The notes beneath the pieces are model-generated. The model was not told the DNA's origin and made no database searches. It saw only the letters and a program-made list of their open reading frames with translations. This document shows, piece after piece, positions 6,194 through 33,735 of a DNA stretch of 64,000 nucleotides. The DNA comes from Amphiscolops sp. MND2022. Its lineage: Eukaryota. The number at the start of each line of letters is the position of its first letter. The stretch's first letter is position 1. Made by a program: the position numbers and the translations under genes. The stretch lies in assembly GCA_964187785.1 (NCBI GenBank), contig OZ076409.1, positions 65,784,001 to 65,848,000 of the forward strand, written 5' to 3'.

Positions 6194-6614
6194 TATTTTC
6201 GATTGGCAGTAAATTTATTATCAACAATTTGCATGAACGGCGTCATAAGATACGCATCAATGGTATTGATAGTTTGGATGAAACCTAATTGGATTTCGTA
6301 TGCTGATTTTGAAGGTTCTTTTCGATTAATTTCGTGAATCATAAAAATTTATGGAATATTTACTCAACATATCAGACAGATTACAACATCATGTTCATAA
6401 GGGTACCAAAAAGCTATAACATCGATTTTGCTGACAAAAAAGTTTAATTTCATTGGATATTAAAAGCAAAACATATCAGTAATGAATCACTTTATTTATA
6501 TATAATATCCAATAGGATGAGAAATGAGCTTAGTAGCTCTTCGAGTTCTCACCCCGGAGAATCAACTAAAAGGCATACTTTTATAAGACATCGATGCGTG
6601 GAACACGGAGATAC

Positions 6615-9455: not shown

Positions 9456-9479
9456 TATAGGTAATGTAATGTTATGGAG

Positions 9480-11767: not shown

Positions 11768-12495
11768 AGGAGGATTTGACTGTATCAATACGCTGTTGTG
11801 GTCAAAACTTAGTTTCGGAATTCAAGCTGACTATTCGAAAGTGTTTTTGAGGAAAAATTTGCTATAATCTTTCAAGGAAAACAGAAAAGTCACACAAAGA
11901 TCGTGTATGATAAACATGAAATTTTGGAATGACCATAATTTTTTTTCATTTATTGGAAAATTGCATAAACGACACGTCACGTCAAACAGGGTTGCTATAG
12001 GTATGAGAAGTTTATGAAGTTTGGTTCTGTTAGATAAATAAATTAACTATGATAACATAAACTTCATATTTGGCAAAACTTTTGGTCTCAAAAAATTGAT
12101 TCAACCCAAGTGACATCTGCTCGTTAATTTTGAGCTGAGTATTCATTCATTCATGTTTGAATCTGTGGCATCAACAAGTGAAACGTATCAACAGTGGATT
12201 TTCAAGGAAAAAGTTTTCCTCTATTTCCTCTATTTCCTAGGCTACTCATACTTGAATGAGACAGCATTGGGCTGTGCTAAGGGCAATCTGCCTGTATTGG
12301 TGCGGTAAGATTCTAAGAAAACTCGTCAAAGCGAACTCACCGGAAACAGCTGGTGTAAAATACGAGGCTGAAAACTCGGCAAAACCAACTCGGCGAAAAT
12401 TCGGCTGCGGAAAACTTGACTTGCATTGACAGAAAATCATCCCAGTCAAGTATAGTGCTTATTTTGTGATCGTATTGCATTACGAATGGAAGTAT

Positions 12496-15400: not shown

Positions 15401-17680
15401 AAGAACGAAAAGAAGAGGAACAAGAAGTTCAACAGCCGGAAATAATCGAGGACACCGAACAAGAAACCGAAGGCGAAAGCCAAGTAATCCGGGGCGACAA
15501 CTTTGCTATCGTCGACTTAAAAGCATACAATACAGAAAGAAAAGAAGCCCAGTTCATACAAAGAAAACAAGTCCTTAAAAAAATCACCGCCCACAAGAAG
15601 AGCACCAAAAAGGCCGAGTTTAATTTTATGCTCCACTTGAAGACATTGATTGCAAAATCATCAACGGATTCCGAACTCAACCGAGTACGAGACGCAATGA
15701 GACGGGGAGAAAAAAACACGGTTCCGGACCAATACTGAACGATATTCGAGAAGCTAAACAACAAATGGGGGCGACATTCAACGATGACCGAATAGTAGTA
15801 ACTACCGAACTGAGAAAGAAGTTGCTGATACACTACATTTCGGACACGCCGGAGCTACCAAAATGACAGCAGAGGCCGAAATCTTTTGGTGGCCGAACAT
15901 GCAGAAAGAAATAGAAGACAAAACAAAAAATTGTGTGGCCTGCATGTCATCGGGTGAGAATTCAAAATACCAAATACCGAAAAACGAGTTCGGAAAATGA
16001 AAAAACAATGACAGAACCGGGACTTGAAATTTAAATTGATTTTTCCGCTAAACTAAGCAACAAAAAACTAAACGGAGACCATCAGATACTTATCGCAATA
16101 GATAGATTCAGTAAATGGCCAACTGCCAAAATTTGCAATTCATCGGAAACCAAGGAAGTATTAAACTTCCTGAAACAAATTTGTAATCTGTACGGATTAC
16201 TGGAGAAAATTAAAACCGACAAAGGTGGGTGGCGTTTGTCTCAAAAGAATACAGGGACTTTTGTATCTCAAAAAACATCGAAAGTGAACATAGCACACCG
16301 CGAATGCATACCGATACGGTAGCAGCAGAACGCGCGATACAAACATTGAAGAACCTAATTATTGCAAACTTGGAAGACGACATGTGTTTAACCGAATAAG
16401 TAAATAGAGCATTGAACGTCATGCGGTTCACAATACATACGGGACTAAAAACAACACCACGGTTTGAATTACACCACGGCCGGAAACCACGGACCGAATT
16501 AACAAATATAATAAAGGACGGAAAATCCTTCCTTTCTAATTGGTCGGAACTACCTGTTTTAGCCAACAACCGACCAAAGATACCAATCTACGTGACCAGA
16601 AATGGGGAAGAAGAAGTATCCAACTATATTATCATGACCTGAACAAAAACGGAAGAGAAGGCAATAACCGAAAAAACGCCAAAGAAGAAAAATTTGGTTG
16701 GTAGATATGCTTTTCAATTCCTTTAAACCATAATAATCATAACAAGAAAACATACATAAGAAAACCATAAAAAGAAATCATTGGAAGTAAGACTTCAGAA
16801 AAACATAGAAACCGCAGAAAATGGTACAGAACACACCGTAACCACCCATAGCGGAAAAAAATATCACCGAAAATTTATTTCGGACCCGATTGTATTTCAG
16901 AAAGAAAGAAAGACAGCGCCGAATATCGGAGACACCATCACTCCAAAAAACCGACACTGCCCCAGAGGAGTCGATGGAAAATACATTTAATGGAATGAAA
17001 TCCTGAGAGATGTACTAAACGGAAAGCTGAAAATTGTACAAAATCAGCGAACCGAATCTGACTCCGAAAGTGAGAAAGTCGAAATAGATGATGAAGAAAG
17101 TGATTTCGAGAATCACGATATCTCCGAAAAAGACGGCCGCTATCGACCAATAACAACATCCCCCGAGGACGAAATAAATCTACATACGGACGGAGAGATG
17201 AACCCGAATGAGAAACAAACAAATAATAAAATAACCGAAAATGAAAAAATAAGATGGTCCAACCGTGAAAGCAGACAACCGAATAGATACCGGGGATTGC
17301 ATATACAAAAAATTTTTGGGTGTGAATCAAAAAATTAATTGTTACAGGTGTTACAGTCGAAAAATGGAACAACCGAAAAGAAGCCTCCAAGCTGCTAACG
17401 AAGCCTACAGACTTCATCCGTGAGAAAACCTCAACACCGGGGACATCAAAACTGTAACTGAAGAAGATCCAGAAGGGAGAAAATGTTATATGGTACACAT
17501 ACCGGACCGATCTTTTGGTGACATTGTCAATCAAATTTTGATCTTTTCCTAAAGTACCAAACATAACTAGATCAACCTAGATACTTACGTTTTTATATAT
17601 TTGTAAACATCATACTTTTGTTTCGTACTGAGATTATATCATTTGATATAGAAATACAGTTAGAGAAAGATCGCTTGACA
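12496..17680 (+). mobile_element. Decayed Ty3/Gypsy (Mag-like) LTR retrotransposon
   Basis: Diverged LTRs of about 200 bp at 12496-12695 and 17484-17680, with PPT AGAAGGGAGAAAA before the 3' LTR. Fragmented gag, two Cys/His knuckles, protease VDTGS, partial RT, RNase H (TTDAS) and integrase. The PBS and gag N-terminus are missing. Confidence 0.9.
12718..17330 (+). pseudogene. Disrupted gag-pol of the 12.5-17.7 kb element
   Basis: Many stops and frameshifts across ORF-track pieces from 12718 to 16990. The RT core is deleted near 14128. Confidence 0.85.
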
Positions 17681-18087: not shown

Positions 18088-18310
18088 TTCGGATTTTTTA
18101 ACATTCTATGTTGCAAAACATCAACAAATTAGAAGGGGACCTTTTGGGAATTTTTTTTCGAAAAAAATGTTTCACAATGCCGAAAACACCCTTTAGTCTC
18201 GCCCGGTACTGTATGTTACGCAGAAAAACTTTTTCGGTTCAGTTCGCTAAGCCAAATGGTTCAATTTGACACCATAAAATTTCGTAGAACTTTGTAGAAC
18301 TACTTTGGTC
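18088..18310 (-). mobile_element. Family A Helentron-like fragment, left half, split by the large Gypsy insertion
   Basis: Shares gaaggggacctttt, tcacaatgccgaaa and ctttagtctcgcccgg with the 11270 copy. Continues at 33666. Confidence 0.55.
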
Positions 18311-19084
18311 TGTAACGGCAAGCTGTTATCGGTCGCTTAACACGTTAACAGAGGTGGAGGAACCTGCAGGAATGGGTGAATCGCTCGGGACAGGCGCCCA
18401 TCGCCACAGATCCATTTTGCCTCCAGGGGTGAAATACGTCCCGGGGCCGCGGGTGCTTCGACAAATACTGTCCAACCGGTCCTAGTCTTTGATTGCTAAT
18501 AGTAACGGGCATCTTTCTGACTCTCTAAAGACCACCGCTTAACTAGCATATAAAAACAATGCCAAGAATAAGGTAAATTTCCAGTTCCAGGGTGACATGT
18601 GAATAAGATCTAAAATTGGGGAATAAGATCTAAACTAGCGCTAGCGCTACTGAATACAGCCAAAATCACTGAAAATACATGAAAACAGGCACGAATATGG
18701 CAAACCACACAGCTAAAAAGCTGGGGCGCAGGGGCTCCAAGCACCAAACAAGGATCTTTATGCGAAAAGACTCATTTTTACGGTTTTCGCTACATAGGGT
18801 AGCATAATGCTGAAAATCATTAAAAACCGGTGTTAGCACCTCAAAAAGAGTCTATTTTCGGTCGTTCTCGCCGTCTCTGGCTTCTGTCATGGCGGCGCGC
18901 CCGTATTTTTGCTCGTTCTTGCTCTTTGTTGTCGAAGTACCTGCCAATTTCGTGGAAACAGCGAAAAGAGCAATCACATGCTCAGTGCCACGTCACACAT
19001 CGGATTAGAATTTTTGACAAAATTTCTGAACATGTCAAAGTTGCAAAATCGGTTGATATTGCTGTACCAGAGCTTGCCGTTACA
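18311..19084 (-). repeat. 3' LTR of the large Gypsy
   Basis: 774-bp direct repeat of 32893-33665 with TG...CA ends. Confidence 0.95.
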
Positions 19085-20205
19085 TCACTCCCCGGGCTTT
19101 ATGCATGACGTCCCTGTCATGCGGAGAGGCTGGCATTGAATACATCGCCACATCATGAGTGCAATCCACTAGGGTCTCAAACTGGTGATGTTGCAACGGT
19201 CCAGTGGCACTGTCATCTTTTGCAGATTGGGCAACCATGAGGTCTTGCTTCTAGCCATCCAGAGAACCTGCATCGTCCAGAAACTGTTGAAACAGAGCTA
19301 GCTCGAGAGCTAGAAAACCAGTACTCAAAAATGCACCTTGAAATTGATCAAATCCAAGATTCCATACATCAATCAAAAAAGCACCACTTTTTTAGCACGA
19401 GTTTTCAGTTTTCTGCAAAAGTCTGAATAGGATACTGCTAGCACTTTGGTTTTTGGACGTCTAAAATTTCTTTTACGGAGCGCTAACGCTCCAAAGCGCA
19501 CGTGGTTCTCAGCAAAACATCTTTTCCACGGCAATGAAATTTCTGTTTGCAGCACAGTTAAAAGTTATTTTCGCTAAAACTTCTTTTCAGCAGTAAAACC
19601 ACTGTTTAAAAGGAAGACAAGCTGTTTCTTTGATACTTTTTTGTACAGTTCGGTTTGGTTTGGGCAGTACGCACTGATGTGCAGCTCCATACCTGTATAG
19701 AGTTCAGTAGCATCTGTCAAGGAGCGCATCAGAAGCAAACTACGAACTGCTCATAAGCATAAGCACTGGAGTAAAGTGGACAAAGGTAGATCAAATCTTG
19801 CTATTTGCAGATCAGGAGCGCGCGCGCTCCTTATTTTTCCGGATATCACGTTGGAATCTGGAGGAAACTTCTGGAAATCTTGGAAAAGAAAAACAACAAT
19901 AGCACCTTTCGGGCGTAGCGATACATGTAGAGTTTCTGGGTTATTTATTGCACTGGGGCTCCCCGGGCTTTAATCGTTGAGCACCTTCATTAAGATAAAG
20001 ATAGCAATGACTAACAAAAAATGCAAAGAAAATGCGAGAGGATGGATTGGGCGTTGAAGACACCCCTTCCCCCCTTGAAAAGAAGTGGAGTGTGGTTCTG
20101 GCAATGGATTTCAACGCATGCTACCACAAGGTAACCAGCAAGGCGTATTAAGCATGAGATATCAGGATAGCAAATAGAAACTTAACAAAAAAATTTACGT
20201 TGAAG

Positions 20206-22416
20206 CTAAGTGATGCCAGGAAATTGTTCAATACTGGCAATGGAGACATAAACGCGATCATGCAGAAATACAGTGATATCAGTTCCTGCAAAAACGTCCA
20301 TGACATTATGATAAAAATTGTCCAAACTGCGAAGTGGGCGTTCAGGGTCCACTATGGGGAAATGAATATCAGGGGTTTCGTTGGACAATAATGAAGCTTT
20401 CAAGTGCTCCAAGCATAAGACAAAGTCATCGGTGATTTGTGGTGAACGCTGGGAGGGGCGTGTTATCATTAGGTGAATAACTTGATTATCCATAAAAGAC
20501 AATGAGGATGGGAGAGTTAGGACTTCACCAACTGTTGGGCGAAGTTGGAATATTTTGTCGCTGCCACACTCGCGAAGAATGTAGCGCAAGGCAGCAGAAT
20601 TGGTATTAAGGTCTGCAGGGCAGCAAATTGCTACGTGGCCCTGCACCTGCAAGAAATCAGTTTGGTCGTAAACAATGTAGTCGACCAAATTTGGTCGCAG
20701 GGCACCAGGAAACACAATCTGACGTCCGGGACCTTTTTCATCAGCTGGGTCTATATGGTTCTGTCCACGAATAGCAGATAGATCCTGCCATACGGACCTC
20801 GACAGAGACTGATTATCCACATTTGCTGTTGACCATGAATCCAGGATACCAAGTGCAGTGTGGATCGTTACAGGCTCGGTGAAGGAATGGGTCCAATCAT
20901 CCAAAAGGCGGATACGAGGGAAGCTGGCGAACAAAGTGATAATCAGCTCTAGCCACCATCGGAACCGTAGTTTTCCACGATAAAGATCGACGATGTGGAA
21001 GCACAAAATGAGTTCCTCAGTGACAACAGTCCGCAAACTCTCTAGACAGCTCCGCAAGCTGTCAGGCTGGACCAAAGAGTGAGCATGTGGGGCAGTTACA
21101 AGCAACCACCAATATTGGGCTGGGCGATACACTTCACCAGGCTGACAGGTGATGCCGTATTTGTCAGATAGGAGGTCAGCGGTGATACAGCGGACCATTT
21201 GGATGGGTTCCCTCTCATAATTGAAAGGTCCAAATACAATGTTAGGAGTGACAGGAGGCACTGTGACGGCAAGTGTGAATTCCAATCCACGGAGATCGCT
21301 TGTCCACTTCTTGAAGCGGGGACAAGGTTCCTCAGCAATCTTGGATTTAGATAATTCTTCCAGCACGACGTCTACAGGGAAGATACGTTCTCTTTCTAGT
21401 CCGGTGTATGTCTTCTCTGCGCGGATGACAACGCGACTGACAAGAAGTTTACCATTGTGAATAAAAGGTTGAGGCTTTGGATCCACCGGAGCTTTCACAG
21501 GTCCAAGTGGGATAGTGGGAGATTTGTTCAAAGCCATTACACAAGTGCAATCGCGGAACCCACAGGTTCCACATCGATATCGAGGTACTCGATTCCGGCG
21601 TAAGCCATAGTGTGGGTTAACCTGCGTTGCGCCTTGGTCAACATCGGATGTAAGCTGCGCGGTGGGCGCATCAGAGTCAGAATCCGATGTAATTGAAGGC
21701 TGTGTGACAATTTCACGAGCTGTTTGCCGTGAAGAAATAGTGCGTCCTCGTGGCCTCCGAGGAGGTCGTCCTCGAGGACGTCCTCTGCGACTGGGAGTCC
21801 TTTGAGCGCGCACGCTCACGTTCTGCGACCGGGAATTTGTTGCTCGTGTCGAACAACGAGATAGAGCAGCTCGCGATCTGCCCCTGCCGCGCGTGCTAGG
21901 GACATTGTTCCGAGCAGTTGGCTCGTTGGTGTTGGATAACTCGGTATCACGGGTTTCAGTGTTTTGGAGGTTGGAGGTACCATTCGGCAATTGGGGAATA
22001 CTAATAGGCACATCCGTCAATGTAGGATTCGTCAACAGAGGAGCAGATGTACCCGCTAGTGATACTTCGGCTTCTCCAGTTGCAACGGGATTATCTTGCG
22101 ATTGAGGTATTTCCGGAATAACTTCAGATTCGGATAAAAATGGAAGCTCGTAGTCATCGGCAGGTTCAAATGACCGAGGTTGTTCATCGGGAGGCATTGA
22201 AGCTTTGAATAGCGCCGGAGGTTCTGCCTGGGAATGATCTCGGGCATCTGACAGTAAGTCGTTAGAGCGCGAACGCTCTGGGTCGGAACTGGAATAGTCA
22301 AATTGCTGGTAGTGGAGACGACTGCCTCCAGCTCGCATTCTGGTACGCAACCTGGTGTCCATCCAGTGGCGTCTCCTTGATGGTAGCGATACATCTGATG
22401 CTTCAGAGAGCGGTTC
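20206..22416 (-). CDS. In-frame C-terminal extension of Pol: disordered region with AT-hook-like motifs, Cys cluster, tandem TARG1/OARD1-like macrodomains
   Basis: Same frame as Gag-Pol after a single TAA (SYRE*EPLSEASDVSLPSRRRHWMDTR). The last domain matches the TARG1-type pattern: IVYDQTDF, AICCPADL, VGEV, IHLMIT, LEHLKASL, IHFP, VMDVFAGTDITVF. Confidence 0.75.
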   Translation of the reverse strand, partial: EPLSEASDVSLPSRRRHWMDTRLRTRMRAGGSRLHYQQFDYSSSDPERSRSNDLLSDARDHSQAEPPALFKASMPPDEQPRSFEPADDYELPFLSESEVIPEIPQSQDNPVATGEAEVSLAGTSAPLLTNPTLTDVPISIPQLPNGTSNLQNTETRDTELSNTNEPTARNNVPSTRGRGRSRAALSRCSTRATNSRSQNVSVRAQRTPSRRGRPRGRPPRRPRGRTISSRQTAREIVTQPSITSDSDSDAPTAQLTSDVDQGATQVNPHYGLRRNRVPRYRCGTCGFRDCTCVMALNKSPTIPLGPVKAPVDPKPQPFIHNGKLLVSRVVIRAEKTYTGLERERIFPVDVVLEELSKSKIAEEPCPRFKKWTSDLRGLEFTLAVTVPPVTPNIVFGPFNYEREPIQMVRCITADLLSDKYGITCQPGEVYRPAQYWWLLVTAPHAHSLVQPDSLRSCLESLRTVVTEELILCFHIVDLYRGKLRFRWWLELIITLFASFPRIRLLDDWTHSFTEPVTIHTALGILDSWSTANVDNQSLSRSVWQDLSAIRGQNHIDPADEKGPGRQIVFPGALRPNLVDYIVYDQTDFLQVQGHVAICCPADLNTNSAALRYILRECGSDKIFQLRPTVGEVLTLPSSLSFMDNQVIHLMITRPSQRSPQITDDFVLCLEHLKASLLSNETPDIHFPIVDPERPLRSLDNFYHNVMDVFAGTDITVFLHDRVYVSIASIEQFPGIT

Positions 22417-25400
22417 TTACTCGCGATATGAGGGTTGTGAGCAGTCATCTCGGATCTCTTCAGCAGAGTGCTCAGGCTCAGGATCCATGACAACGACCAC
22501 ATCGCCACTCCCCGAGGGAAGCGCAACAAACTCCGTAGGGCCACCATGATGAGGTTTCAGCCGCTCAAAGTGCACTTTTTGTCCTGAGTCCAGGATATAG
22601 ACGCGGCCATCTTGTAGTACATGGACAACCTTGTGCGGACCACGCCAAGCTCTCATCAACTTCGGTGATCCTTTTTGAGGTACATAGCGGCAGAATACCC
22701 AAACGGGGTCTCCCACATTGTATGCGTTTGCACGAATAGCTCGATCGTACTTTAGCTTTTGACGTTGTTGCGCCTGATGCGTGTTTCTACGCACCAAGTC
22801 ATGAATCTGTTGCTGGCGAGCAGGAATATGCTCCACATAAGCTCCATGCGATTCAAATGATCTGGCTGCGAACTCCGGATACAGATAGGTGAGAGGAATA
22901 GCCTTTTCGGTCCCTCGGGTCAGCATGTAGGGTGAAAACCCAGTCGTGGCATGGCGTGTTGAGTTATACGCTCCCATGACTTCATCCAAATGCTGGTCCC
23001 AATCTCTCATGCGACGCGAGCAAAATACCCGCAACAAAGTCAGCAAAGTCCGATTTTGTCGTTCAACCAGACCTTGGGTGCGCGGATGACCCGCCGTAGA
23101 GGTAACTTTTGTGACCTGAGATGCCCTCATGAACTCATTGGATACCTCTGCAGTCAAGTTGGGGGCATTGTCTGACTGCATCCGCGTAGGCGTGCCGTGT
23201 CTGGCAAACCATTTCTGCAAAAGCAACCTAGACGTGGTCACTGCATCGTAATCCTCATGGCTGCAGGGTACGGCCTCCGCAAACTTGGAGAAATGGTCAA
23301 TTATCACCAATATGCCGGTGTTATTGTTATCGGAGGGGCATATTTTCAGATGGTCATACTGGACCAATTCATTGAAATACCCACTTTGGATATTTTTCAA
23401 GTGAAACCGAACGTCTCCCGGTCTGTCACGTACTTGCTGGCACGTGAGGCACTGACTCACGTACTGACCAACGCTGCGGCGAATACCTGGCCAGGTGTGG
23501 CGTTCCTGGATTCGCGAAACCACCTTTGCAATGCCTTGGTGGCCCATGGCATCATGAGCACGAAACAAAATTTCATGCTGGTACAATTGTGGCATTACAA
23601 TCATGCACGGACGTTCGTGCAATGGACGTTGCTGAGGTGGATACTTAACACAAAGAATTCCATTTTGGTTCACAAACAGGAGATCTTTTTTCTGCTTGTA
23701 ATAGTTACGTGCGAACGCACGCACGTCGTCAGGAAAAATGTCATGATCAATAGACTCTTGTGCTACCAACTTCTTTATGGCTAGAACATGCACATCACGA
23801 TTCTGCGCCAAAAGCAGATCCTTGATGCCATGCACCGTGTTGGCATGTTCATGAAGTTCCGTGTCTATGTCTTTGATGGCTAGGGCAGCTTGCCTAACCA
23901 CCGTTGGAGCGGAAGCCATGGCTTGCTCCACTGTTTCGTCAAGGGCATATGTCATGCGTGAGGGGATATTTGCCACATGTGTAGGCAGCAAGTAATCTTG
24001 CCTAGCCTCTTCAGTGACGTCAATCCAGTCCTCAGGATAATCTGGATAGAAGTCTTCGTGAGCTTGCAATGTAGGCACTGGTGCCTCAGGTAGAGGAGCG
24101 CGTAGCGCCCTCTCCCTTTTCTCAGCGACCTGACTGCGCTTACGCCGTCGTGCAACTCGACAAACTGCTTTTGTGGGGTCTGGTTTAGTGTTCCGCAAGT
24201 GAGCGGGCAATTGGGGGTGATTGGGCATCACCCGACCATGCAAATCGAACCAAGGTGCAACGGGCAGCTGGTCAAACTCCTCCTGTGAGAGGAAATTCCA
24301 TTTGTCTGTCTTAGCTGGCAGCTTCTCGAGCTGCTTCTCTCGCCACGGATAATCATTGGTTCGTTTACTGAGGATATCGGCATTCCTATGCTGTGTCCTG
24401 GGACGATGCTCCACTTTGAAATGGTACTTCTCGAGTGCCATAATCCATCGTCCAATCAATGCCTGATCAGTGGAATACGTTTTGAGCCAAGAGAGAGCTT
24501 GATTGTCAACCCGAAGGATGAACTTTCTGGAGCAGAGATAACTGTGATTCTTCAAGACGAAATAATAAGCTGCGTACATTTCAAGCTTGGGAGCGCCATA
24601 CTTCGCTTGAGTGGCATTCAACTTCTTGCTACCATACACAGTTGGTCTCAGGCGCTTTTCGCCCGGAGGACCCTGCCACTGATGCAAAATGCCGGAAATT
24701 GCAACAGCACTGGCATCAGTGTCCAGCACAAATTCGCCCTCCGAGTCCGGTTGCGCCAAGGCAGTTGCCTCGATCAAAGCCAATTTGACGGCGTTGAAAG
24801 CCTGTTGCTGCTCATCCCCCCAGGCGAAAGTCGCGCCCAGGCCGGTAAAAGCATGCAAGGGAGCCACAAGCTTGGCGTGCCAAGGAATAAACTCTCGATA
24901 ATAGTTGGCGAAGCCCAAAAAGCTTTGCATCTCTGTTTTGTTCCTCGGTACCTCCCAATTGCGTAGTTTTGCTACTGCTTTAGGATCAGGTTTGATACCT
25001 TCGGCAGAGACCACACGCCCCAGGTACTTGATTTCCGACTTCATAAAGTCACACTTAGCGACTCTCATTTTGAAGCCAGCTTCGCGCAGACATTCAAATA
25101 CCTCGCGTAAGCGTACCATGTGGTCCTCGACTGTCTCGGTAGCAATGACGATGTCGTCAATATACGCCATCACCATGCTTCCTTCCCGGTTCACAATTTT
25201 CCGTAGCGCTCGCGCTATGGCTCGCTGGAAAGTAGCTGAAGCGTTACACATCCCAAAGGGCATACGTCTCCACTCTAACAAACCCAGCTCGCAAGCAAAG
25301 GCCGTTTTCTGCCTATCTGCTTTGCGCACTGGTATCTGCCAGAAAGCCCAGGTCAAATCAATACTGGTGTAAATCTTGGCCTTACCCAAGCGTGAAAGGC

Positions 25401-28344
25401 TTTCATCGATGCGTGGGAGGGGATACGCGTCCTTTATTGTGACAGCGTTGAGGGGGCGAAAGTCGCAGCAGAATCGCAACTCCCCATTTTTCTTTTTTAC
25501 CATCACAATCCCACTCGCCCAAGGTGATAGCGAAGGTTGGATCATGCCCAAAGCCAGGAGATTGCGTACTTCTTGATTGGCGCGCTCCGCCTTGTCAGGC
25601 GACATTCTTCTCGCGCCTTCACGGTGCGGTGTAGCCCCAGGCTCCAACTCAACAGGATGCTTGGCTATTGTGCAGCGACCAATGTCTGCTTTGTGCTTCA
25701 TGAATAGGTCATCAAATTCCGTAAGGATGTTGTTCAGCGAGTCGCGGGCAGTCTTCCCCCACAACTTTTGTACCTCCTCTAACTGAGATTCGGGTACAGG
25801 AATAGGGGCCAAGAGATCAGGGTCAGTGCGCTTTCTGATCTCGCGCTCTGACAACCCCTCCTCCGATGGGTCTGTAGAGGAGAGAAACTCAAACTCCGAC
25901 GACGACGAACATTTTGAATGCGAGTTCAGGTCCATTTGAGAATAGACCCTGTTGACGAACTCATTTGGGGAGTCCGATTTTTCGTCACTTTCGCCTTTGT
26001 GCGCTAGCGCACATTGGGGAACTGCATGGTAGACTAGGCGTACTGGCGCAGCAGTGCCAAGCATGGTGCCGCACTTCACTTTCTGGGCATTGCTTGTCAG
26101 ATTGCCAACAGAGACATAGAACGAACCTGTCTCTCCAACAGTGGCTATAGTGTCTTCCACGAATATAGTGTTCTTCAGCAATCGGTTCGGTGTTGCAAAG
26201 TTAATCACAACATTACTGAAAGCAAAAGCTTCCAAGTTCGAAGTGACCACCTTGGCACGTAGAAGAGCACGTTCAAATGGCTGGAGCACTACGTCTTGAT
26301 CCAAGACTACTGTGCTGGATAAAGCTTCGTCACTCGTCTGGGCGTGTGCGTGATGCCACACAGGCTTAGCCGGTGCTCGCACCACAACTTTCATGGAGGT
26401 CAGATCTACCAGCACGTTGTATGTTCGCAGAAAATTCCTACCCAGCAAGAAATCTTCCAAGCCATGTGCGTCATCAACGACCACGAAATTTGTTTCGAGC
26501 TCATATCCACCAAGTTGGAAGCGCACACGCTCCGCTATTCCAAAAGTTTTCATCGTCTTCCCATTAGCAACATACAAGTCGATTCGGTAAGGTTGTAGCG
26601 CTACACCTGTCCGCAAGGCTACACGGTTGAAGGCTGAGAAACTCATGATTGATACGCCTGACCCTGTGTCGACCATTCCTCTCAGTGGAATAGGGTTGGC
26701 ATCTGGCACTGCAAAAGATACTACGAGCGACGCACGCTCATCTATGCGGGCCTCACCTGTGGGCTCCTGCTTGCTGATGCTATAGCAGCGTAATTCATGT
26801 GGCCCTAGACACACTCCTTGAGGGAACACACCTACTACCACGCTAGCATCAAATTTCATGTCCACGCCATCTATGTTAGCATGCACCGGAACAGGCGAGT
26901 ATGCCGTGCATGTGCTAGCTTCGCCTTCAGTGTACCATTCCTTTGGCAGTGGCAAGGAGATCTTTTTGACAGCCGAATTGCTAGCTAACTCCAGCTTCAA
27001 TTTTTCCAAAGTCAAATCTGGGCGTATTTGTTGCTCAGAGGCCAGCACTAGGTGTACAGACAATAAAGTCCGGCCACTAGGGTCAAACGTTGTGGACTCC
27101 AAACCTGTCTGCACCTGCTTTGTGCCACAGGTGACAGTCAATGGAGCATTTACGGTGGCTTGGTCAGCTGGGCGTAGCATTAATACCCTGCCAGAGGCAG
27201 TAGACAGGGTTTGCGTTGCATCCGTTTTCTTCTTTTCTTCAGCCCTAGGGCTGGAAGTTTCTGACTGGATTGATAATGTTGGACAACCTGCAGGCACCTC
27301 AGTTGTGCACGATTTCACTGGGACAGCAGGCGCTGGAACCGCTGCTGCAGCACCTTGCTGAGACTCACCATGTGGGTCAAGAATATGCTCCGGGCGATGC
27401 ACCACCAGCTTGCGTCTCGCGCAAGCACTCTGCAAGCAGCGCGCGGATTGCTCTAAGGTTGCGGTCTGTCTGTATTCAGGGGTTGTGTGTACTGACGCAG
27501 CCGGCATCGGCAATCGCGCCGACCGGCGTGCAAGGGGTGGCAGCGATTCATACTGCGGAGCCACTGGTGACCCCGGCACTTGGTTGCTCTGTAGGCACTG
27601 GTAAGGTAAAGTCTCGGTGCACCCTGGGTCACGAGGCTGTTGTTGGTGACGACTCCTTTGGAGTTCCTGTACAGTGAACCGAAGTGATTCTACGGTAGGT
27701 GGGTCGGCTAGATATGCCTCAGTCGCAAACACTACCGTCAGTTCTCGTTGCAACACGGGATCGCTGACCCCATCCGTGAACCGATGCAAGATTTCATAGC
27801 GTCGGGTTGTGATAGGCTCATCAGGAAAACCCTGACTCCTCAGACCCTCTAATGCATCTAAATACTGCATCAGGCCCTCTTTCTCAAGCTGATTTCGCAA
27901 CCTGAAAGCCTGCCTCACTGGCCAGCGGCTTTTCCCAGTCCCAAATCTGCTGGAGAGCAAGGTAGTCACCTTCTCGTGAGAATCCCGTTCGGACTCCGGT
28001 TTGTTGATTATAAAACTCCGAGCTTCATCACCTAAGTGATCGATTATCGCCCAGGCCTTGTCGACAGGTGAAGCATTGGAATAAACTCGCTCCAAATATC
28101 GTTTCATCACGAGCAACCACTCTTCAACAGTCCCGTCTTTCGAACCTCTGTATAAGGTTGGTCGAACAGCGGTTTGATCACGATTGGCAATCAAGGGAGC
28201 CAACACTTTAGCTATAGTTTTGGTTATCGCCTCCGTGAATTTCAACTTTTCTGGAGATATCAATTCATCTTTTGGGTCATCAGTACCATGATTGCTCTCG
28301 AGCAACCCGCCTCGATCCATAGGCGACGTGTGAGCCATGCCCAT
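22417..28344 (-). CDS. Gag-Pol polyprotein (capsid, protease, RT, RNase H, integrase), 1975 aa
   Basis: Capsid-like EEWL...AIIDHL, protease VDTGSG, RT DFRPLN and YIDD, RNase H DTDAS, integrase HxxxGH..CxxC, D..D..E and the WRGP motif. Gag probably begins further upstream, beyond frameshifts near 28440-28545. Confidence 0.95.
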   Translation of the reverse strand: MGMAHTSPMDRGGLLESNHGTDDPKDELISPEKLKFTEAITKTIAKVLAPLIANRDQTAVRPTLYRGSKDGTVEEWLLVMKRYLERVYSNASPVDKAWAIIDHLGDEARSFIINKPESERDSHEKVTTLLSSRFGTGKSRWPVRQAFRLRNQLEKEGLMQYLDALEGLRSQGFPDEPITTRRYEILHRFTDGVSDPVLQRELTVVFATEAYLADPPTVESLRFTVQELQRSRHQQQPRDPGCTETLPYQCLQSNQVPGSPVAPQYESLPPLARRSARLPMPAASVHTTPEYRQTATLEQSARCLQSACARRKLVVHRPEHILDPHGESQQGAAAAVPAPAVPVKSCTTEVPAGCPTLSIQSETSSPRAEEKKKTDATQTLSTASGRVLMLRPADQATVNAPLTVTCGTKQVQTGLESTTFDPSGRTLLSVHLVLASEQQIRPDLTLEKLKLELASNSAVKKISLPLPKEWYTEGEASTCTAYSPVPVHANIDGVDMKFDASVVVGVFPQGVCLGPHELRCYSISKQEPTGEARIDERASLVVSFAVPDANPIPLRGMVDTGSGVSIMSFSAFNRVALRTGVALQPYRIDLYVANGKTMKTFGIAERVRFQLGGYELETNFVVVDDAHGLEDFLLGRNFLRTYNVLVDLTSMKVVVRAPAKPVWHHAHAQTSDEALSSTVVLDQDVVLQPFERALLRAKVVTSNLEAFAFSNVVINFATPNRLLKNTIFVEDTIATVGETGSFYVSVGNLTSNAQKVKCGTMLGTAAPVRLVYHAVPQCALAHKGESDEKSDSPNEFVNRVYSQMDLNSHSKCSSSSEFEFLSSTDPSEEGLSEREIRKRTDPDLLAPIPVPESQLEEVQKLWGKTARDSLNNILTEFDDLFMKHKADIGRCTIAKHPVELEPGATPHREGARRMSPDKAERANQEVRNLLALGMIQPSLSPWASGIVMVKKKNGELRFCCDFRPLNAVTIKDAYPLPRIDESLSRLGKAKIYTSIDLTWAFWQIPVRKADRQKTAFACELGLLEWRRMPFGMCNASATFQRAIARALRKIVNREGSMVMAYIDDIVIATETVEDHMVRLREVFECLREAGFKMRVAKCDFMKSEIKYLGRVVSAEGIKPDPKAVAKLRNWEVPRNKTEMQSFLGFANYYREFIPWHAKLVAPLHAFTGLGATFAWGDEQQQAFNAVKLALIEATALAQPDSEGEFVLDTDASAVAISGILHQWQGPPGEKRLRPTVYGSKKLNATQAKYGAPKLEMYAAYYFVLKNHSYLCSRKFILRVDNQALSWLKTYSTDQALIGRWIMALEKYHFKVEHRPRTQHRNADILSKRTNDYPWREKQLEKLPAKTDKWNFLSQEEFDQLPVAPWFDLHGRVMPNHPQLPAHLRNTKPDPTKAVCRVARRRKRSQVAEKRERALRAPLPEAPVPTLQAHEDFYPDYPEDWIDVTEEARQDYLLPTHVANIPSRMTYALDETVEQAMASAPTVVRQAALAIKDIDTELHEHANTVHGIKDLLLAQNRDVHVLAIKKLVAQESIDHDIFPDDVRAFARNYYKQKKDLLFVNQNGILCVKYPPQQRPLHERPCMIVMPQLYQHEILFRAHDAMGHQGIAKVVSRIQERHTWPGIRRSVGQYVSQCLTCQQVRDRPGDVRFHLKNIQSGYFNELVQYDHLKICPSDNNNTGILVIIDHFSKFAEAVPCSHEDYDAVTTSRLLLQKWFARHGTPTRMQSDNAPNLTAEVSNEFMRASQVTKVTSTAGHPRTQGLVERQNRTLLTLLRVFCSRRMRDWDQHLDEVMGAYNSTRHATTGFSPYMLTRGTEKAIPLTYLYPEFAARSFESHGAYVEHIPARQQQIHDLVRRNTHQAQQRQKLKYDRAIRANAYNVGDPVWVFCRYVPQKGSPKLMRAWRGPHKVVHVLQDGRVYILDSGQKVHFERLKPHHGGPTEFVALPSGSGDVVVVMDPEPEHSAEEIRDDCSQPSYRE

Positions 28345-29199
28345 GGTTGCGTTGTTCGAAGATATCGAGGCCGGTTCATCGATTGGTTGTGCTGCGCTGG
28401 TGCCCTCTCCCCCTTCAAAAGGAAGCAGTGGCGTTGGAATTTTTCCGAAGGTTTCATTCCAGCGTTAGATGTAGCAGAATGTGGCTCAAAGGAGTCTTTC
28501 AGCAAACTCGGTAGAGATTTGGGTATTTTGCAATTGCCCAAAAAAAAGTTCTCTGCAAATTTGGCGTAATATTCGGCGTTGATGCTACTCGATACAGCAA
28601 AATAACACCAAAATGAGGCACCAGAGTGTTAAAAGGGTGTCACACTCGGGCAATCCGCTCAAATTTGTCGTCACTAGGAAGTTGCTCCTCTCAAAATCTC
28701 GTGATTTTGGCTAAGTCGGAACTCACAGGGTCTCTTTTGGATATCGAAAACCCTGCTCAAGGTAACTCCTAGAGATTTTCGTTTGGAAAAATGTAGTCCA
28801 GAGTGCGTCGCAGGCACTTAAAACTGCTGCCTTGAACTGTTCAGGATCAAATTTCAAGGTTCCAGAGGAGTCCAAAATTTATGACCCCTGCCTTCAATTT
28901 TTTTGAACCGTGGGATTTGCCTCGTTTGCACCCAGGAAGGTCTACTGGGCCCCTTCCGTTGGAAAATGAAGGCTTTTTGGGTCTGCCTCCTGTACAGCGG
29001 AAGTATTGACGATTTACAATGATAGATTTTCCGGTGTTTTTTGGAATTTTGTTCAAAACGTGTGTCTGAACAAAGTCAAATTCAGTTTTATCAATCGTAC
29101 TGGGTACAAAATGACACAGCACAATTTGTCAGCCACACAAGTCAGAAAAATAACCTTCCGTAGCTGATAATTGCCTCCAGCTCCAAGCTAGAGCCTTTT

Positions 29200-31470
29200 T
29201 CAACGATTTTTGGATTTTTCAACTTTTTTCGAAAATCACTCAGATGGCTTTTACAAGTGCTGGAAACGTGGTATCGGGCTCAAAATTGGTCACGCGATCA
29301 CACGTACAGCCAGCTACACTACAGTAGCAACCAATGAGAGTTCAGACCACTGGGCGAGATTTAGATCTGGTACGGACGTTCCGTATCACCGTGTTTCGAT
29401 TGACACTATTTTTCACATGCAATCAAAGACTCTCGTCCACAGTGTTGAGCTCTCGAGCTCACTTTTTCAGCAACGGTGCACCAAATGACACTAATAAGAA
29501 TAGTCCAGGGCAATGTAATCCCAACTTCTCAATAAGGTGCGCCGACAATTCCGAAAAAATGATCCAATTCGTTACAATACACAGGATATCACAACTTCAA
29601 GTAATAAAATGCTATGATCCAGCAAGGCAGCCCACTCGATACTGTTCAAATATCACACGCACAGCAATGAACTAACTGCTGGGAGTTCAAACTATGGGTT
29701 TCCACAGGTTTCCAACACGTAGAAATGACTTTTTCTCACTTTCCCTGTTTTCGTCTCGATGAGACCTCTGACAGACACAATGAATATGCTTGTCCGAGAA
29801 GCGTCGAAATAAGTTCCAAGGGTTGTAGCGTGCTGGAAGGTATACAGCACTTCCGCATTGATGCACTGACCCAAAAAGTGAGTCCAGAATCGGGGTAATA
29901 GGATCCAGTCACAGGTCAGAGATTTTTCAGGTATTTTTTGGGTTTTTCAGCTTCACTTGAAAAAAACTCCAGAGGCTAGCGCAAACGCTAGAAACGCAGG
30001 ATCGGCTTCAAAATCAACCACACAGTCCCACGTAAGTTGAGGTACAAGGGACTAATAGCTGATTTGTGCTGAGATGACTAGGTGAAGTTTCAACACAATA
30101 CAGACGTTCGGTATCACCGTGTTCCAATATGCAGTGTTCTTCACGTGTCAACTCAGATTCCGGCAAACTGCAAAGAGCTCGCAAGCTCGTTTTTTCGGCA
30201 ACAATACGATAAACTTGCACTGGTTACGATGGTGGGCAGCAATTTGGCCCCACTCTTTGAATAAGATGTTCAGGCAATCCCACAAGACTTCGTAGAATTC
30301 GCCTTCTTGCGCACCTTCTTGTGCAGTTTGTTTTAGTCAATTTCTCAACAGATATAGTAGCGATTGACACCAAACTTGGCAGACGCTGTCAGTAGGCACC
30401 AACCACGCTGTTAGAGTAGTGAAATAGACGCTGGTAGGCTTCAGGGGGTCTCCTCAAGGGTTTGGCCCTCTGCTCGTCTCGGTGAGGACTTAAGAAAATT
30501 GATGTTTTTTCAACGTCCAAGATTTTTCAAAACACGTTCTAAGGCTCGTAGGCTGTTCAAATTTGCACCGCGCTTTCCCACAAGCACAATGGGCCAGAAA
30601 ATCAACCTGGTTTAGGGCAAAAAGTCTCCAGTCACCCACAGGAAGAAATTCGAACAATTTTTGAATTTTCCAAAAATCGCACCACAACACTCAAGAGGCT
30701 CGTGTGTGCGCTGGAAGCGCTGTATCAAGCCCAAAATTGACCAGCAGATCTTAGGTACACGTAGGTTTACGAAAATGAACACAGAATTGAGCTGCACCCC
30801 TTCTACACAGTTTCACCTAGGTACAGACGTGCGGTACCAGTATGTACCGAAATACACGGTTTTTCACGTCTTTTTCAAGATTGCGGTCCACTGGAAGGAG
30901 CTAGCAAGCTCAAATTCTCTGCAGCAACGTAGGAACTAGCACAAATTACAATAGTGGGCTGCAATATAGCCCCACCCGTCGGCTAAGGTACCCGGGTTAC
31001 TTGGAAAAATTAAGAAAAAACTGCCTTTTTGCGCACTTTTTTGGGCACCGCGTTTTTCCTATTTTCTCGACAAGTATCACACAGATCGGCACCAAACTTG
31101 GTAGTTTATGCCAGTGGGCACCTACAATTCCACTAAAATGGTCGAATTGAAGCGCGAGCGCTTATTTGAGGTTTCGACCCACTATGTACGTTGTACACGA
31201 AAAAACACTGTTTTTGACGACTTTTTTCACAAATTGACCAAGAGGATCACCTCAGAAAGTGATACGGCAGGCAAAATGGGACCAACGTGTTGCCCCACTA
31301 TCCGTAGCACTGGGATAAACCCTCAATTGGTTGTGCCCGTTGGGTATAAGGCACTGACAGTCCTGCAGTTTTGGATTTTTTTGGTCCTTTTACGCTTCTC
31401 TGAAGTCGAAACGTCAGAGAGCTTTTCTCGACTTTGGTGACCGATACGCTCACCAAATTTTCGGCACTAA
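29200..31470. repeat. Degenerate tandem repeat with a period of about 720 bp in the Gypsy leader
   Basis: Homologous blocks at about 29205, 29930, 30655 and weakly 31370. Example: tacggacgttccgtatcacc (29371), tacagacgttcggtatcacc (30099), tacagacgtgcggtaccag (30822). Confidence 0.7.
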
Positions 31471-32860
31471 CGGTAATTTTTGTGGTGGTTACGAAAATGC
31501 AACCACTTTTTGGCTAGGGTTCAGGAATCGATGACCCGACCCTAGCTCAGAGACAGTCTGGTTTTGTGGAAAATTGATCAAATCCAGTGCGTTTTTCCAC
31601 TTTTCTCAGCACTGAAAAGGAATTTTTGCACGCGGTTTTCACCACAATGCGTTATTTTTACTTATAAAAACAGAAAATGAGAGCGCGCGGGCTCCCAGGT
31701 CTCGAAAACACTGAGTGCCCCAGAGGTTTTAATGGTGCACTCTGGCACTCCTGAAACTGGCCAAAAATCAAGGTTTTTCGAACTGTTCTCACCAAGAAAA
31801 CGTTACAAACTCTCTTAAATCCTATTTTCGGTACTGTGGAGTGTGCCCCAAACTAATAGCAGCACGGAAGAGGCAATTACATCACAATCCAGCACTCTCC
31901 CAGTGGCATTTCGTAGTGGTTTTTTGCCAATTTCGCCAAAAACCGGGTTTTTTCATGCCAAATGTGTCTCAAAAAGGACTCCAACGGCCTTTCTGGTTGT
32001 CGTTACATTATGTAGCATAACCCTCGAGGTTTTGGGCTGCTTTCTATTCATTTTTGCAACTGCTGTGGCTAATACTTCGAGCGCTCGCGCTCGTACCAAG
32101 AAAAGTACTCAAAAATGCCAAAAATCACGTTTTTGCGACTTTTGCACTAAAAACCGCACTTTTTTCACTGAAAACAGGTGCAAAAGCACACACTTAGTTG
32201 CAACTGGGTAAAACTAGCATGCACAAATGATTCTCCGTCAAAAAATACACAATCTAAAAATTTTTTCATACCATACTCCGAAAAACTGATACTTCTGGAA
32301 TGAGGGGTGGTACTTTCGTCGTCTTTTTTCTCAACACCCAGACCAGCTAGAGAGAAACGGTTTGCACCGTCGGCAACGTCAGTGCTTGCTCTACTTTTCC
32401 ACCAAAAACCATCCCTCTAGCACGTCTCCACGAGAAATGGGAAAGGAGAGTCGGGAACACTCGTTTCAGCTCATCTATCAGTCAGATGGAATATGGTTCA
32501 ACCATCAACTTCACCTCTCGTACATAGCCAAAAACGCTGAAATGAGCTGTAAAACACCTGTTACAACATGCGTAACGGCTTTCTAGCGGTTCGCTAAGCC
32601 ATTACAAAGGTACCCGCTGATGGGAACGTGCAATTTTAGACGATACCTGTCAACAAATACCTGTTATCAAAACATACCAAAGGTATTCGGAAAAATCCCC
32701 CGAAATACAGGAAAAATACCAAAATATAATGTCATATCATCTAAAAAATTTGGAAAAACTCTGGGTAAACGTCTCCTTCCAGAGTCCAATCGTTCTTGGC
32801 GTCCAATACCAGGGGGTCGGAAATTTTAAAACCATATAATAGGGCAGTAATCGGAAGCGA

Positions 32861-32877
32861 TCCCTCTGTGGTCGCCA
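32861..32877 (-). promoter_or_regulatory. Primer-binding site, tRNA-Arg-like
   Basis: TGGCGACCACAGAGGGA on the minus strand resembles, from memory, the complement of the metazoan tRNA-Arg(UCG) 3' end. Confidence 0.65.
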
Positions 32878-32892
32878 AAAAATGAGGTCTCA

Positions 32893-33665
32893 TGTAACGG
32901 CAAGCTGTTATCGGTCGCTTAACACGTTAACAGAGGTGGAGGAACCTGCAGGAATGGGTGAATCGCTCGGGACAGGCGCCCATCGCCACAGATCCATTTT
33001 GCCTCCAGGGGTGAAATACGTCCCGGGGCCGCGGGTGCTTCGACGAATACTGTCCAACCGGTCCTAGTCTTTGATTGCTAATAGTAACGGGCATCTTTCT
33101 GACTCTCTAAAGACCACCGCTTAATTAGCATATAAAAACAATGCCAAGAATAAGGTAAATTTCCAGTTCCAGGGTGACATGTGAATAAGATCTAAAATTG
33201 GGGAATAAGATCTAAACTAGCGCTAGCGCTACCGAATACAGCCAAAATCACTGAAAATACATAAAAACAGGCACGAATATGGCAAACCACACAGCTAAAA
33301 AGCTGGGGCGCAGGGGCTCCAAGCACCAAACAAGGATCTTTATGCGAAAAGACTCATTTTTACGGTTTTCGCTACATAGGGTAGCATAATGCTGAAAATC
33401 GTTAAAACCGGTGTTAGCACCTCAAAAAGAGTCTATTTTCGGTCGTTCTCGCCGTCTCTGGCTTCTGTCATGGCGGCGCGCCCGTATTTTTGCTCGTTCT
33501 TGCTCTTTGTTGTCGAAGTACCTGCCAATTTCGTGGAAACAGCGAAAAGAGCAATCACATGCTCAGTGCCACGTCACACATCGGATTAGAATTTTTGACA
33601 AAATTTCTGAACATGTCAAAGTTGCAAAATCGGTTGATATTGCTGTACCAGAGCTTGCCGTTACA
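32893..33665 (-). repeat. 5' LTR of the large Gypsy
   Basis: 773-bp direct repeat of 18311-19084. Confidence 0.95.
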
Positions 33666-33735
33666 GTCAATTCGTGTGGATTGAAAAAAAGAGTCACTAT
33701 ATTAGCTTCGTTTCACTTCATGAAGCGGACTAATA
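33666..33735 (-). mobile_element. Family A Helentron-like fragment, right half
   Basis: aaaaaaagagtcactata...gaagcggacta matches the family A terminus (gtcact...aagcgccgacta). Confidence 0.55.

Follow-up and report, generated by a model that had tools for sequence, protein, structure and literature searches.

The integrase of a young, high-copy and very active Gypsy retrotransposon family in Amphiscolops sp. MND2022 continues into a C-terminal tail whose two domains, as judged from predicted models, carry the fold of TARG1-class macrodomains. Both folds evolve under purifying selection, and the ADP-ribose pocket is predicted to be blocked in each. We suggest, with a probability of roughly 0.45, that this tail is a repurposed tether to chromatin or nucleic acid. 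The window, a stretch of 64,000 nucleotides of contig OZ076409.1, holds a complete 15.4-kb element on its minus strand (18311-33665), which is laid out as follows in window coordinates:

33666..33668, no strand: 3-bp target-site duplication, copy adjoining the 5' LTR
32893..33665, minus strand: 5' LTR, 773 nt, TGT...ACA with 12-nt inverted ends
28500..32892, minus strand: 5' leader of ~4.4 kb with no ORF of at least 150 aa, common to non-coding 5-8 kb derivative elements
22420..28464, minus strand: Gag-Pol frame of 2015 aa between stops
26425..26688, minus strand: aspartyl protease (PF13975, E 4.9e-8)
25018..25500, minus strand: reverse transcriptase (PF00078, E 1e-34)
24424..24822, minus strand: RNase H (PF17919, PF17917)
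23083..23592, minus strand: integrase zinc-binding and core domains (PF17921, PF00665)
22417..22419, minus strand: nonsense codon private to the window copy
20206..22416, minus strand: integrase tail, 736 aa, with a ~270-aa low-complexity linker, a motif cluster and a globular tandem unit
22351..22368, minus strand: HxMxTR-like motif, resembling the CMV IE1 nucleosome anchor H481/M483/T485/R486
21760..21789, minus strand: AT-hook-like RGRP repeats
21595..21609, minus strand: YxLR motif, resembling the foamy-virus Gag anchor pattern Y537/L539/R540
21541..21573, minus strand: CxxC-x4-CxC cluster, a putative zinc site (model confidence low)
21259..21450, minus strand: beta-rich subdomain before macrodomain 1 (pLDDT ~70-90)
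20896..21252, minus strand: pseudo-macrodomain 1 (upstream), predicted TARG1 fold with G43 loop and helix missing, and with D-x-Y-R-G where TARG1 has its G121-D125 loop
20251..20685, minus strand: pseudo-macrodomain 2 (C-terminal), complete TARG1 fold as predicted, with R for K84, A for G43 and DPERP as the GCGLD loop
18311..19084, minus strand: 3' LTR, 774 nt, same as the 5' LTR at 771/776 aligned positions
18308..18310, no strand: 3-bp target-site duplication, copy adjoining the 3' LTR

The pair of TG...CA-ended LTRs and the domain order PR-RT-RNase H-IN mark the element as Ty3/Gypsy, the trees being built from relatives in this genome and in databases only. Relative to one sister, the window copy shows small indels close to the gag start.

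The tail frame (736 aa stop to stop, 718 aa from the first Met) and the 2015-aa Gag-Pol ORF (22417-28464) lie in the same frame with a single TAA between them, just as the preliminary description of this DNA had read it, and its estimate of about 2710 aa for the joined product from the first Met fits the 2752 aa obtained stop to stop with the TAA read as X. In sister copies, Gag, Pol and tail form a single frame of 2750-3060 aa. The TAA had been attributed to either a nonsense change or a readthrough stop, to be settled by whether it is fixed among genomic copies. It is missing from 20/20 long-frame sisters, but as these were chosen for their long frames they are uninformative on the stop, and we used a genome-wide search with an exact 30-nt pattern instead. 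The TAA form occurred once, in the window copy, and forms with a non-stop first base 147 times. Hence, the stop (1/148) is a private nonsense change, and programmed readthrough is ruled out.

Pfam gave no match for the tail, no macrodomain emerged when alignments A1 and A2 were searched as profiles against Pfam and PDB, and phmmer returned TARG1 as its only match at E ~2. The assignment therefore rests on the predicted folds and on a profile-profile match to the intact macrodomains of this genome, which reached a probability of 95% for domain 2 and only 3.5% for domain 1. Structure prediction for both segments, as had been proposed, yielded a macrodomain fold for each. The AlphaFold model of domain 2 matched TARG1 at a Foldseek E of 7.2e-10 (VIA Z 15.9, rmsd 3.5, 140 aligned), bearing out the earlier reading of the C-terminal segment as TARG1-like, while domain 1, folded without domain 2, matched TARG1 at E 4.1e-5 (Z 10.5, rmsd 3.0, 116 aligned), with DarG tying. 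For domain 2, the ESM Atlas placed a Macro cluster only 19th (score 0.88), and domain 1 had no usable match there; a viral fold library gave matches only to generic macrodomains. A macrodomain tree grouped the two domains with a long-branch warning and was given no weight. With both folds predicted and a single frame shared by sister copies, the proposed tandem of TARG1-class folds in frame behind the integrase held. No Chromo match was found in the tail with Pfam, its globular part being of predicted macrodomain fold, with residues ~54-117 of the second model folded and searched only as a part of it.

As dS was saturated among families A, B and C, dN/dS was taken only from family C versus C2 and from within-family variants, covering the comparison across copies that had been called for. 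Between C and C2 it was 0.046 for domain 1, 0.12 for domain 2, 0.09 for the beta-rich subdomain and 0.17 for the linker; from variants common among 20 family-A copies it was 0.07, 0.22 and 0.36 for domain 1, domain 2 and the linker, respectively. Identity between families was likewise higher for the upstream than for the C-terminal domain (70% vs 51%; 47% vs 42%). The low dN/dS of the upstream domain and its higher identity rule out its neutral decay. Its reading as a more decayed second copy thus stood as to the fold and fell as to the decay, since the domain is reduced structurally, yet better conserved.

The TARG1 T83-K84 and G121-D125 regions, the latter including D125, a member of the catalytic dyad, align to domain 2 without gaps, and in this alignment domain 2 reads TRP for TKK and DPERP for GCGLD, as first described. 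Among its relatives, domain 2 has R at the K84 position in 123/128, D at G121 in 117/117, E at G123 in 102/117, A at G43 in 128/136 and R at L124 in 115/116, with S or P at D125 in 103/116 (D in 2) and the first-strand-motif aspartate retained in 128/133. Domain 1 has S or A at K84 (146/150), D at G121 (142/148), Y/H/F at G123 (142/146) and G at D125 (142/146); its G43 loop and helix are deleted, and the D and R of the domain 2 pocket recur at the same positions. The residues of a TARG1-class hydrolase (K84, D125) and the glycine-rich diphosphate loops (G43; G121-x-G123) are accordingly absent as such. K84 is the catalytic lysine of TARG1 (PMC8501950), and its suspected loss was confirmed in the alignments of both domains, for which we predict that catalysis is lost. 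Human TARG1, as described in PMC5928194, loses its ADP-ribose binding upon either of the engineered changes G123E and G43E; the G123E protein is more stable, retains RNA binding via surface patches and fails to gather at sites of damage, and PAR competes it poorly. From the residues at these positions, we predict that the pocket is blocked and ADP-ribose binding lost in both domains.

Several short motifs precede the globular unit. RGRP, YxLR and the Cys4 cluster are conserved in 9/9 clade representatives although the surrounding linker diverges, with RGRP present in 0/5 outer relatives and the L and R of YxLR invariant across 35 rows. Pfam AT_hook scored at best E 0.26, in 10/35 rows, and stayed below the Pfam cut-off throughout, and distant relatives retain only the TR core of the HxMxTR-like motif. 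A predicted complex between H2A-H2B of this genome and the YxLR/Cys peptide scored 0.29 against a mark of 0.34 and counts neither way. Overall, the charge of the macrodomains themselves is neutral to acidic (K+R 12 vs D+E 13; 10 vs 19), and a C-terminal HxxYY/HxRVY strand is conserved and specific to blocked forms. Single-domain relatives and P0271 are without RGRP, YxLR and Cys4, which indicates that the blocked domain had its job before the motifs arose, perhaps one unconnected with them.

The integrase relatives form a graded series with one intact macrodomain, one blocked or two blocked, and in the integrase tree all blocked forms together had the intact P0280 as their sister (95/94 and 98/98). 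Single blocked domains scored 18-22 bits with the domain-1 profile, and intact domains -1 to 7. The elements P0266, P0271 and P0280 come from outside this genome. At least five other elements in the genome (L086, L087, L089, L090, L096) have intact TARG1-like domains, which in these other retroelement types occupy at least three different positions within Pol; in L086 and L087, as in P0280, the domain lies behind the integrase. We infer that an ancestor would have captured an intact TARG1-like eraser behind its integrase, as in P0280, that the pocket would then have been remodelled to the form seen in P0266 and P0268, with R for K84 and D-P-x-R for GCG, that the remodelled domain would have been duplicated, and that the AT-hook-like, YxLR and Cys4 motifs would have been added in the clade of the window element.

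Upon scoring insertion sites (38 rows, with five pair members typed as solo dropped to leave 33, and two pairs without a scorable end), we found a 3-bp target-site duplication at 30/33 sites and no match at 3, whereas shuffled pairings matched at 1.3 sites on average and at 7 at most. Among the controls, a duplication could be scored in two elements, family E at C8 and the window element at 41338-47276, with 5 bp each, and in none of families D, F and G. Duplications described for LTR elements and retroviruses span 3-6 bp, which puts 3 bp at the low extreme, and retroviral integrase has a spacing of 4-6 bp (PMC10045372). The flanks of 30 insertions had 36-38% GC vs 35% in nearby window DNA, only one pair among 60 flanks had a repeat in common, and LTR density in the first 42.5 Mb of C1 (100) was the same as over the genome as a whole (2523 in 1067 Mb). 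We thus saw no sign of regional or AT-rich targeting in these flanks and densities. The suggested role in targeting integration thus survives as plausible tethering through other surfaces and motifs, without regional preference in the 30 flanks.

We hypothesize that the pseudo-macrodomains, together with the neighbouring basic motifs, would keep the integration complex bound to chromatin or nucleic acid as a broad, sequence-independent tether that reads no ADP-ribose mark, and we propose that the tail would stay attached to the integrase. The tail occupies the same position as Gypsy chromodomains, in line with such a role, as are the retention of RGRP, YxLR and Cys4 within a divergent linker and the likeness of YxLR to the foamy-virus anchor pattern. 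Against it, relatives have a blocked domain but lack these motifs, the insertion flanks show no regional preference, the neutral to acidic charge weakens direct nucleic-acid binding by the macrodomains, YxLR and RGRP are short and the AT-hook falls under the Pfam cut-off, protease cleavage may occur between integrase and tail, and the conserved D and R residues with the retained first-strand aspartate could mark a new ligand site. The charge also speaks for a rival in which the domains bind a host factor involved in silencing, translation or nuclear import and act as an accessory or counter-defence protein that may be cleaved from the integrase. Non-canonical viral macrodomains bind proteins, SARS-CoV macrodomain II with Paip1 (PDB 6yxj) is among the fold matches, the C-terminal strand is confined to blocked forms, and P0266 and P0268 have a blocked domain without the basic motifs; yet selection is strongly purifying with no arms-race acceleration at the domain level, and there is no candidate partner, so that we consider host-factor binding unlikely.

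The preliminary description had favoured a non-catalytic ADP-ribose reader that targets integration, for which ADP-ribosylated chromatin would be the destination, or a decoy against ADP-ribosylation defence. The TARG1 ancestry, the first-strand aspartate of domain 2, the five other elements with intact domains, through which ADP-ribosylation plausibly matters to retroelements here, and the ability of PAR to contact macrodomain surfaces away from the pocket (PMC5928194) all speak for it, but the G121, G123 and G43 replacements in domain 2, their counterparts and the loop deletion in domain 1, and the binding-dead human G123E make this reading improbable. The RNA binding kept by TARG1 G123E (PMC5928194), a family-A Gag without CCHC knuckle, the arginine-rich linker and the 4.4-kb leader common to many non-coding derivatives would agree with an RNA-binding or particle-assembly module that packages or chaperones the element's long RNA. 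The sister-family polyproteins P0203 and P0207, however, combine a PF00098 knuckle annotation with the same integrase, and it is integration cofactors that more typically sit behind the integrase, leaving that role quite doubtful. Most improbable of these is that the conserved R, D and R (at K84, G121 and L124, the D and R shared by domain 1) have rebuilt the pocket to take another ligand or carry out another reaction, as the same residues may form an internal salt-bridge plug, G123E stabilises TARG1 (PMC5928194) and no candidate substrate emerged. A bolder form of the tether, in which the plugged, duplicated pseudo-macrodomain would be a new integrase cofactor that holds on to nucleosomes or target DNA and alters the intasome so that it cuts with an unusually short stagger of 3 bp at A-N-N-[NWN]-N-N-T sites, is unlikely; if true, it would make this macrodomain an equivalent of the chromodomain of chromoviruses, with evolutionary intermediates still living.

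Both domains resemble in predicted fold TARG1/OARD1/C6orf130 (PDB 4J5Q, 4J5R, 2LGR) and the DarG/Poa1p group, with TARG1 the top Foldseek match, but differ from TARG1 in the replaced K84, D125, G121, G123 and G43, in the missing G43 loop and helix of domain 1, and in standing as two copies within a retrotransposon polyprotein. Fish epsilon-like endogenous retroviruses carry an intact macrodomain, described in PMC4977317 as an additional ORF. These fish elements, P0280, L086, L087, L089, L090 and L096 likewise have a macrodomain in a retroelement, which in them is single, with TK and GCGLD-type motifs and a Pfam Macro match, whereas that of the window clade is tandem, pocket-blocked and without Pfam match. 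The SARS-unique domain of coronavirus nsp3 has lost ADP-ribose binding and binds G-quadruplexes. It also consists of tandem repurposed macrodomain folds in a viral polyprotein (PDB 6YXJ, 8UFM, 2JZF; weak fold matches, Z ~7), yet belongs to another macrodomain lineage and virus class, which makes it an analogy and not a homology of function. In chromoviruses such as MAGGY, the integrase ends in a folded chromodomain (bioRxiv 2021.11.30.470311); the window element has a folded accessory domain at the same place, but no chromodomain match in Pfam and no regional insertion bias in 30 flanks. The foamy-virus Gag chromatin-binding sequence, an acidic-patch anchor, and the CMV IE1 tethering domain place their anchor residues in YxLR and HxMxTR patterns (PMC9040877) that the window tail appears to share, here in short, putative motifs on Pol behind the integrase. 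The literature that we searched on macrodomains or TARG1 with retrotransposons or integrase, and on 3-bp target-site duplications, which excluded subscription journals and Repbase reports, held no description of the module.

LTR finders require by default a target-site duplication of at least 4 bp. The 3-bp duplications would be missed at such settings, and the clade also escapes Pfam Macro detection. The series documents a route from enzyme to pseudo-enzyme in a mobile element, with intact, single blocked and tandem blocked forms as living intermediates, and in the blocked domains selection has kept a natural equivalent of the binding-dead TARG1 mutant made in the laboratory. At least five retroelement types with intact TARG1-like domains in one genome suggest that ADP-ribosylation acts on retrotransposons, which is directly testable, and if the tail is a tether, it would represent a new type of integration cofactor.

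The Gypsy element of the window, from family A, carries behind integrase a tail with two predicted TARG1-like domains, the upstream domain 1 and the C-terminal domain 2; they are listed here with the other features of the window.

Features of the window (coordinates, strand, description)
18311-33665 (-), complete Gypsy element
32893-33665 and 18311-19084 (-), its LTR pair, identity 771/776
between 5' LTR and Gag-Pol frame (-), long, non-coding leader
upstream of the stop (-), Gag-Pol frame of 2015 aa with PR, RT, RNase H and integrase domains
22417-22419 (-), TAA, the one stop splitting Gag-Pol from the tail frame
beyond the TAA (-), tail frame of 736 codons, in frame with Gag-Pol
upstream of domain 1 (-), beta-rich unit in the predicted model
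20896-21252 (-), domain 1, predicted TARG1 fold
20251-20685 (-), domain 2, predicted TARG1 fold
5430-6198, MITE-like inverted repeat
6615-10400 (-), LINE with ORF1 and endonuclease-RT ORF
~12484-17676 (+), broken LTR element with short LTRs
41338-47276 (-), broken LTR element with short LTRs and a 5-bp duplication
49700-57000, 2.5-kb unit in three tandem copies, 97-100% identity

The sequence-level evidence for macrodomains was thin, with no Pfam match for the tail and TARG1 alone recovered by phmmer (E ~2). Structure prediction pointed to a TARG1 fold twice: the AlphaFold model covering the final 471 aa (alignment of 35 rows; pLDDT 73) had TARG1 as its best match (Foldseek E 7.2e-10; Z 15.9 over residues 286-456), and the 284 aa upstream, modelled by themselves (pLDDT 79.6), returned TARG1 again, with DarG tied (Foldseek E 4.1e-5; Z 10.5 over residues 120-238). 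Both predicted models thus agree with the tandem TARG1-like macrodomains of the preliminary description, whose segment bounds lay close to the model-based ones.

The stop codon separating tail and Gag-Pol is a mutation private to the window copy. A 30-nt pattern with the stop matched the genome once, at the window itself, whereas with a different base in first position the pattern matched 147 times and, among the matches listed (100 of 147), every one had a sense codon; in addition, 20 sisters, picked for their long frames, hold a single frame of 2468-3052 aa through the stop position with the same tail at its end. From these frames and counts, the predicted family product is one Gag-Pol-tail polyprotein, and of the two origins first considered for the TAA, the base change stands while the readthrough stop is rejected by the pattern counts. 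Small indels also lie close to the gag start of the window copy.

Family A is large. In the 1.07-Gb Amphiscolops genome, all 150 scored matches to the last 184 aa of the tail showed 95-100% identity, 23 of them falling inside frames of at least 2750 aa, and exact LTR starts numbered 2523 genome-wide. Two gag versions, in frames of ~2770 aa versus ~3050 aa (L012 versus L013), share the same pol and tail, and a CCHC knuckle is absent from both. Contig C1 holds a head-to-tail array of the family (34.04-34.11 Mb; LTR spacing 14.05-14.2 kb) and non-autonomous derivatives of 5-8 kb (L137, L138, L141, L142, L145, L146), which have family LTRs and the 5' leader without a coding match to Gag-Pol references. 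In the 18-kb elements of sister family B (L135-L136, L139-L140, L143-L144), the LTR matches family A at 86-93% identity over its first ~100 nt (window 33565-33665), and a 1.3-kb leader block is common to both at ~91% identity. Synonymous sites between the families are saturated; these likenesses suggest recombination between A and B. An internal polypurine-tract-like run followed by TGT lies ~130 nt past the tail stop (window ~20062-20076, -), and the AAAGCCCGGGGAG motif preceding the 3' LTR has a second copy (window ~19960-19972, -); the two are possibly relics of an earlier LTR. A primer-site-like TGGCGACC (window ~32870-32878, -) is offset inward from the 5' LTR end by ~15 nt instead of adjoining it, in the window copy and in sister copies alike.

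The tail is under selection. It is carried, in frames of 3009-3225 aa, by sister families B, C and C2 of the same genome, and dN/dS between C and C2 was 0.046 for domain 1, 0.12 for domain 2 and 0.17 for the linker, with a range of 0.017-0.10 across the Pol core (PR, RT, RNase H and the core of integrase), bearing out a constraint on both domains in sister copies. Shared variants among 20 family-A copies gave 0.07, 0.22 and 0.36, respectively. The upstream copy had been described as more decayed; yet it has the lower dN/dS and is the better conserved between A and B (70% versus 51% identity), and by these comparisons domain 1 is reduced, not decaying.

Substitutions in the predicted ADP-ribose pocket run through both domains. 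With TARG1 numbering taken from the phmmer alignment (chain position + 6, so that K84 and G123 fit published names), the ungapped loop alignment of domain 2 places R at K84, D at G121, E at G123 and P at D125, a residue of the TARG1 catalytic dyad. Among proteins matched by profile (143 rows for domain 2, 162 for domain 1, gaps excluded; many rows are near-identical copies and so not independent), domain 2 reads D at G121 in 117/117, E at G123 in 102/117, R at K84 in 123/128 and A at G43 in 128/136, with D125 kept in 2/116; domain 1 reads D at G121 in 142/148 and Y, H or F at G123 in 142/146, and its G43 loop and the accompanying helix are deleted. Since K84 is the catalytic lysine of TARG1 (PMC8501950), the previously proposed loss of catalysis fits the alignment. 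In human TARG1, ADP-ribose binding is abolished by G123E and by G43E, and the G123E protein is more stable and keeps RNA binding (PMC5928194). As the element, by alignment, has fixed the same G123E change that abolishes binding in TARG1, the non-catalytic ADP-ribose reader or decoy suggested before is unlikely.

Macrodomains in retroelements were already known (PMC4977317), and our searches of an open-access collection turned up no account of one that is fused to integrase, pocket-blocked or in tandem. Intact TARG1-like domains occur in at least five types of other elements in this genome: L086 (which also has a weak dUTPase match) and L087 have theirs after integrase, L089 has it between RNase H and integrase, L090 between protease and RT, and L096 after a protease. 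Two adjacent host-like TARG1 sequences whose motifs are intact lie at C1 46.43-46.44 Mb (L094 and L215); one is apparently an exon, the other a 315-aa frame that lacks introns and has an additional N-terminal region.

Database proteins related by integrase form a graded series from intact single to blocked single (pocket residues replaced, by alignment) to tandem domains. In P0280 (integrase 37% identical), a single intact TARG1-like domain follows integrase; in P0264, P0266 and P0268 (48-50%) the one domain reads TR and DPNR, and in P0270 it is truncated. In P0271 a weakly similar second domain precedes the C-terminal one, which is blocked (DWDR), and the window's clade carries two domains. 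The integrase tree places P0280 as sister to all blocked forms (support 95/94 and 98/98), with the branching order within the blocked forms poorly supported. Remodelling probably preceded duplication, as single blocked domains score 18-22 bits with the domain-1 profile and intact ones -1 to 7. For the macrodomains of P0266, P0271 and P0280, the Amphiscolops genome has no close counterpart (nothing above 31%, 36% and 45% identity, respectively; top-ranked matches at 31%, 31% and 45%), so that the lineage, judged by sequence, extends to other assemblies. P0266, P0287 and P0288 are annotated with a GDSL-lipase-like domain (PF13472), upstream in P0266 in a polyprotein ending in a single blocked macrodomain.

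The clade is further marked by added motifs and by its target sites. RGRP, YxLR and CxxC-x4-CxC each occur in 9/9 clade representatives, versus 0/5 outer relatives for RGRP and the Cys4 motif and P0280 only for YxLR. The foamy-virus Gag anchor that binds the nucleosome acidic patch (Y537/L539/R540) has the YxLR pattern, and the tail's HWMDTR resembles the IE1 anchor (PMC9040877, PMC6042332); we regard both as resemblances to known chromatin anchors. Target-site duplications (window 18308-18310 and 33666-33668; loci L105-L186) are 3 bp at 30/33 scorable sites (shuffled mean 1.3), namely 17/18 with A-type and 13/15 with shorter LTRs. Families C and C2 likewise gave 3 bp in 3/3 scorable copies, whereas two control Gypsy elements have 5-bp duplications. 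The target preference is palindromic, A-N-N-[NWN]-N-N-T, with A or T at the centre in 29/30 and, four bases to either side, A in 23/30 and T in 20/30. Duplications of 3-6 bp are reported for LTR elements, and of 4-6 bp for retroviral integrase (PMC10045372), so 3 bp is a low extreme with precedent; a single coincidence at the level of the clade is what links it to the tail.

Several roles for the tail can be weighed against this evidence. An accessory role, in which the tail binds a host protein, seems rather unlikely, and retained binding of ADP-ribose or PAR, which the pocket replacements speak against, is less likely still. RNA packaging by the tail is improbable, and a pocket rebuilt as a new ligand site slightly more so. 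The most likely reading, tentative at a probability of roughly 0.45, is a broad tether on chromatin or nucleic acid. Counting against a tether, no AT enrichment or common repeat was seen in the flanks of 30 insertions, insertions are dispersed across the genome, the macrodomains are not basic, and the blocked domain is older than the RGRP, YxLR and Cys4 motifs. A tether is favoured by the selection on the tail, the predicted pocket loss, the added basic and zinc-like motifs and a chromodomain-like position, chromoviruses having a chromodomain (bioRxiv 2021.11.30.470311) where these elements have a blocked macrodomain tail. The tail would then hold the integration complex broadly on chromatin or nucleic acid.
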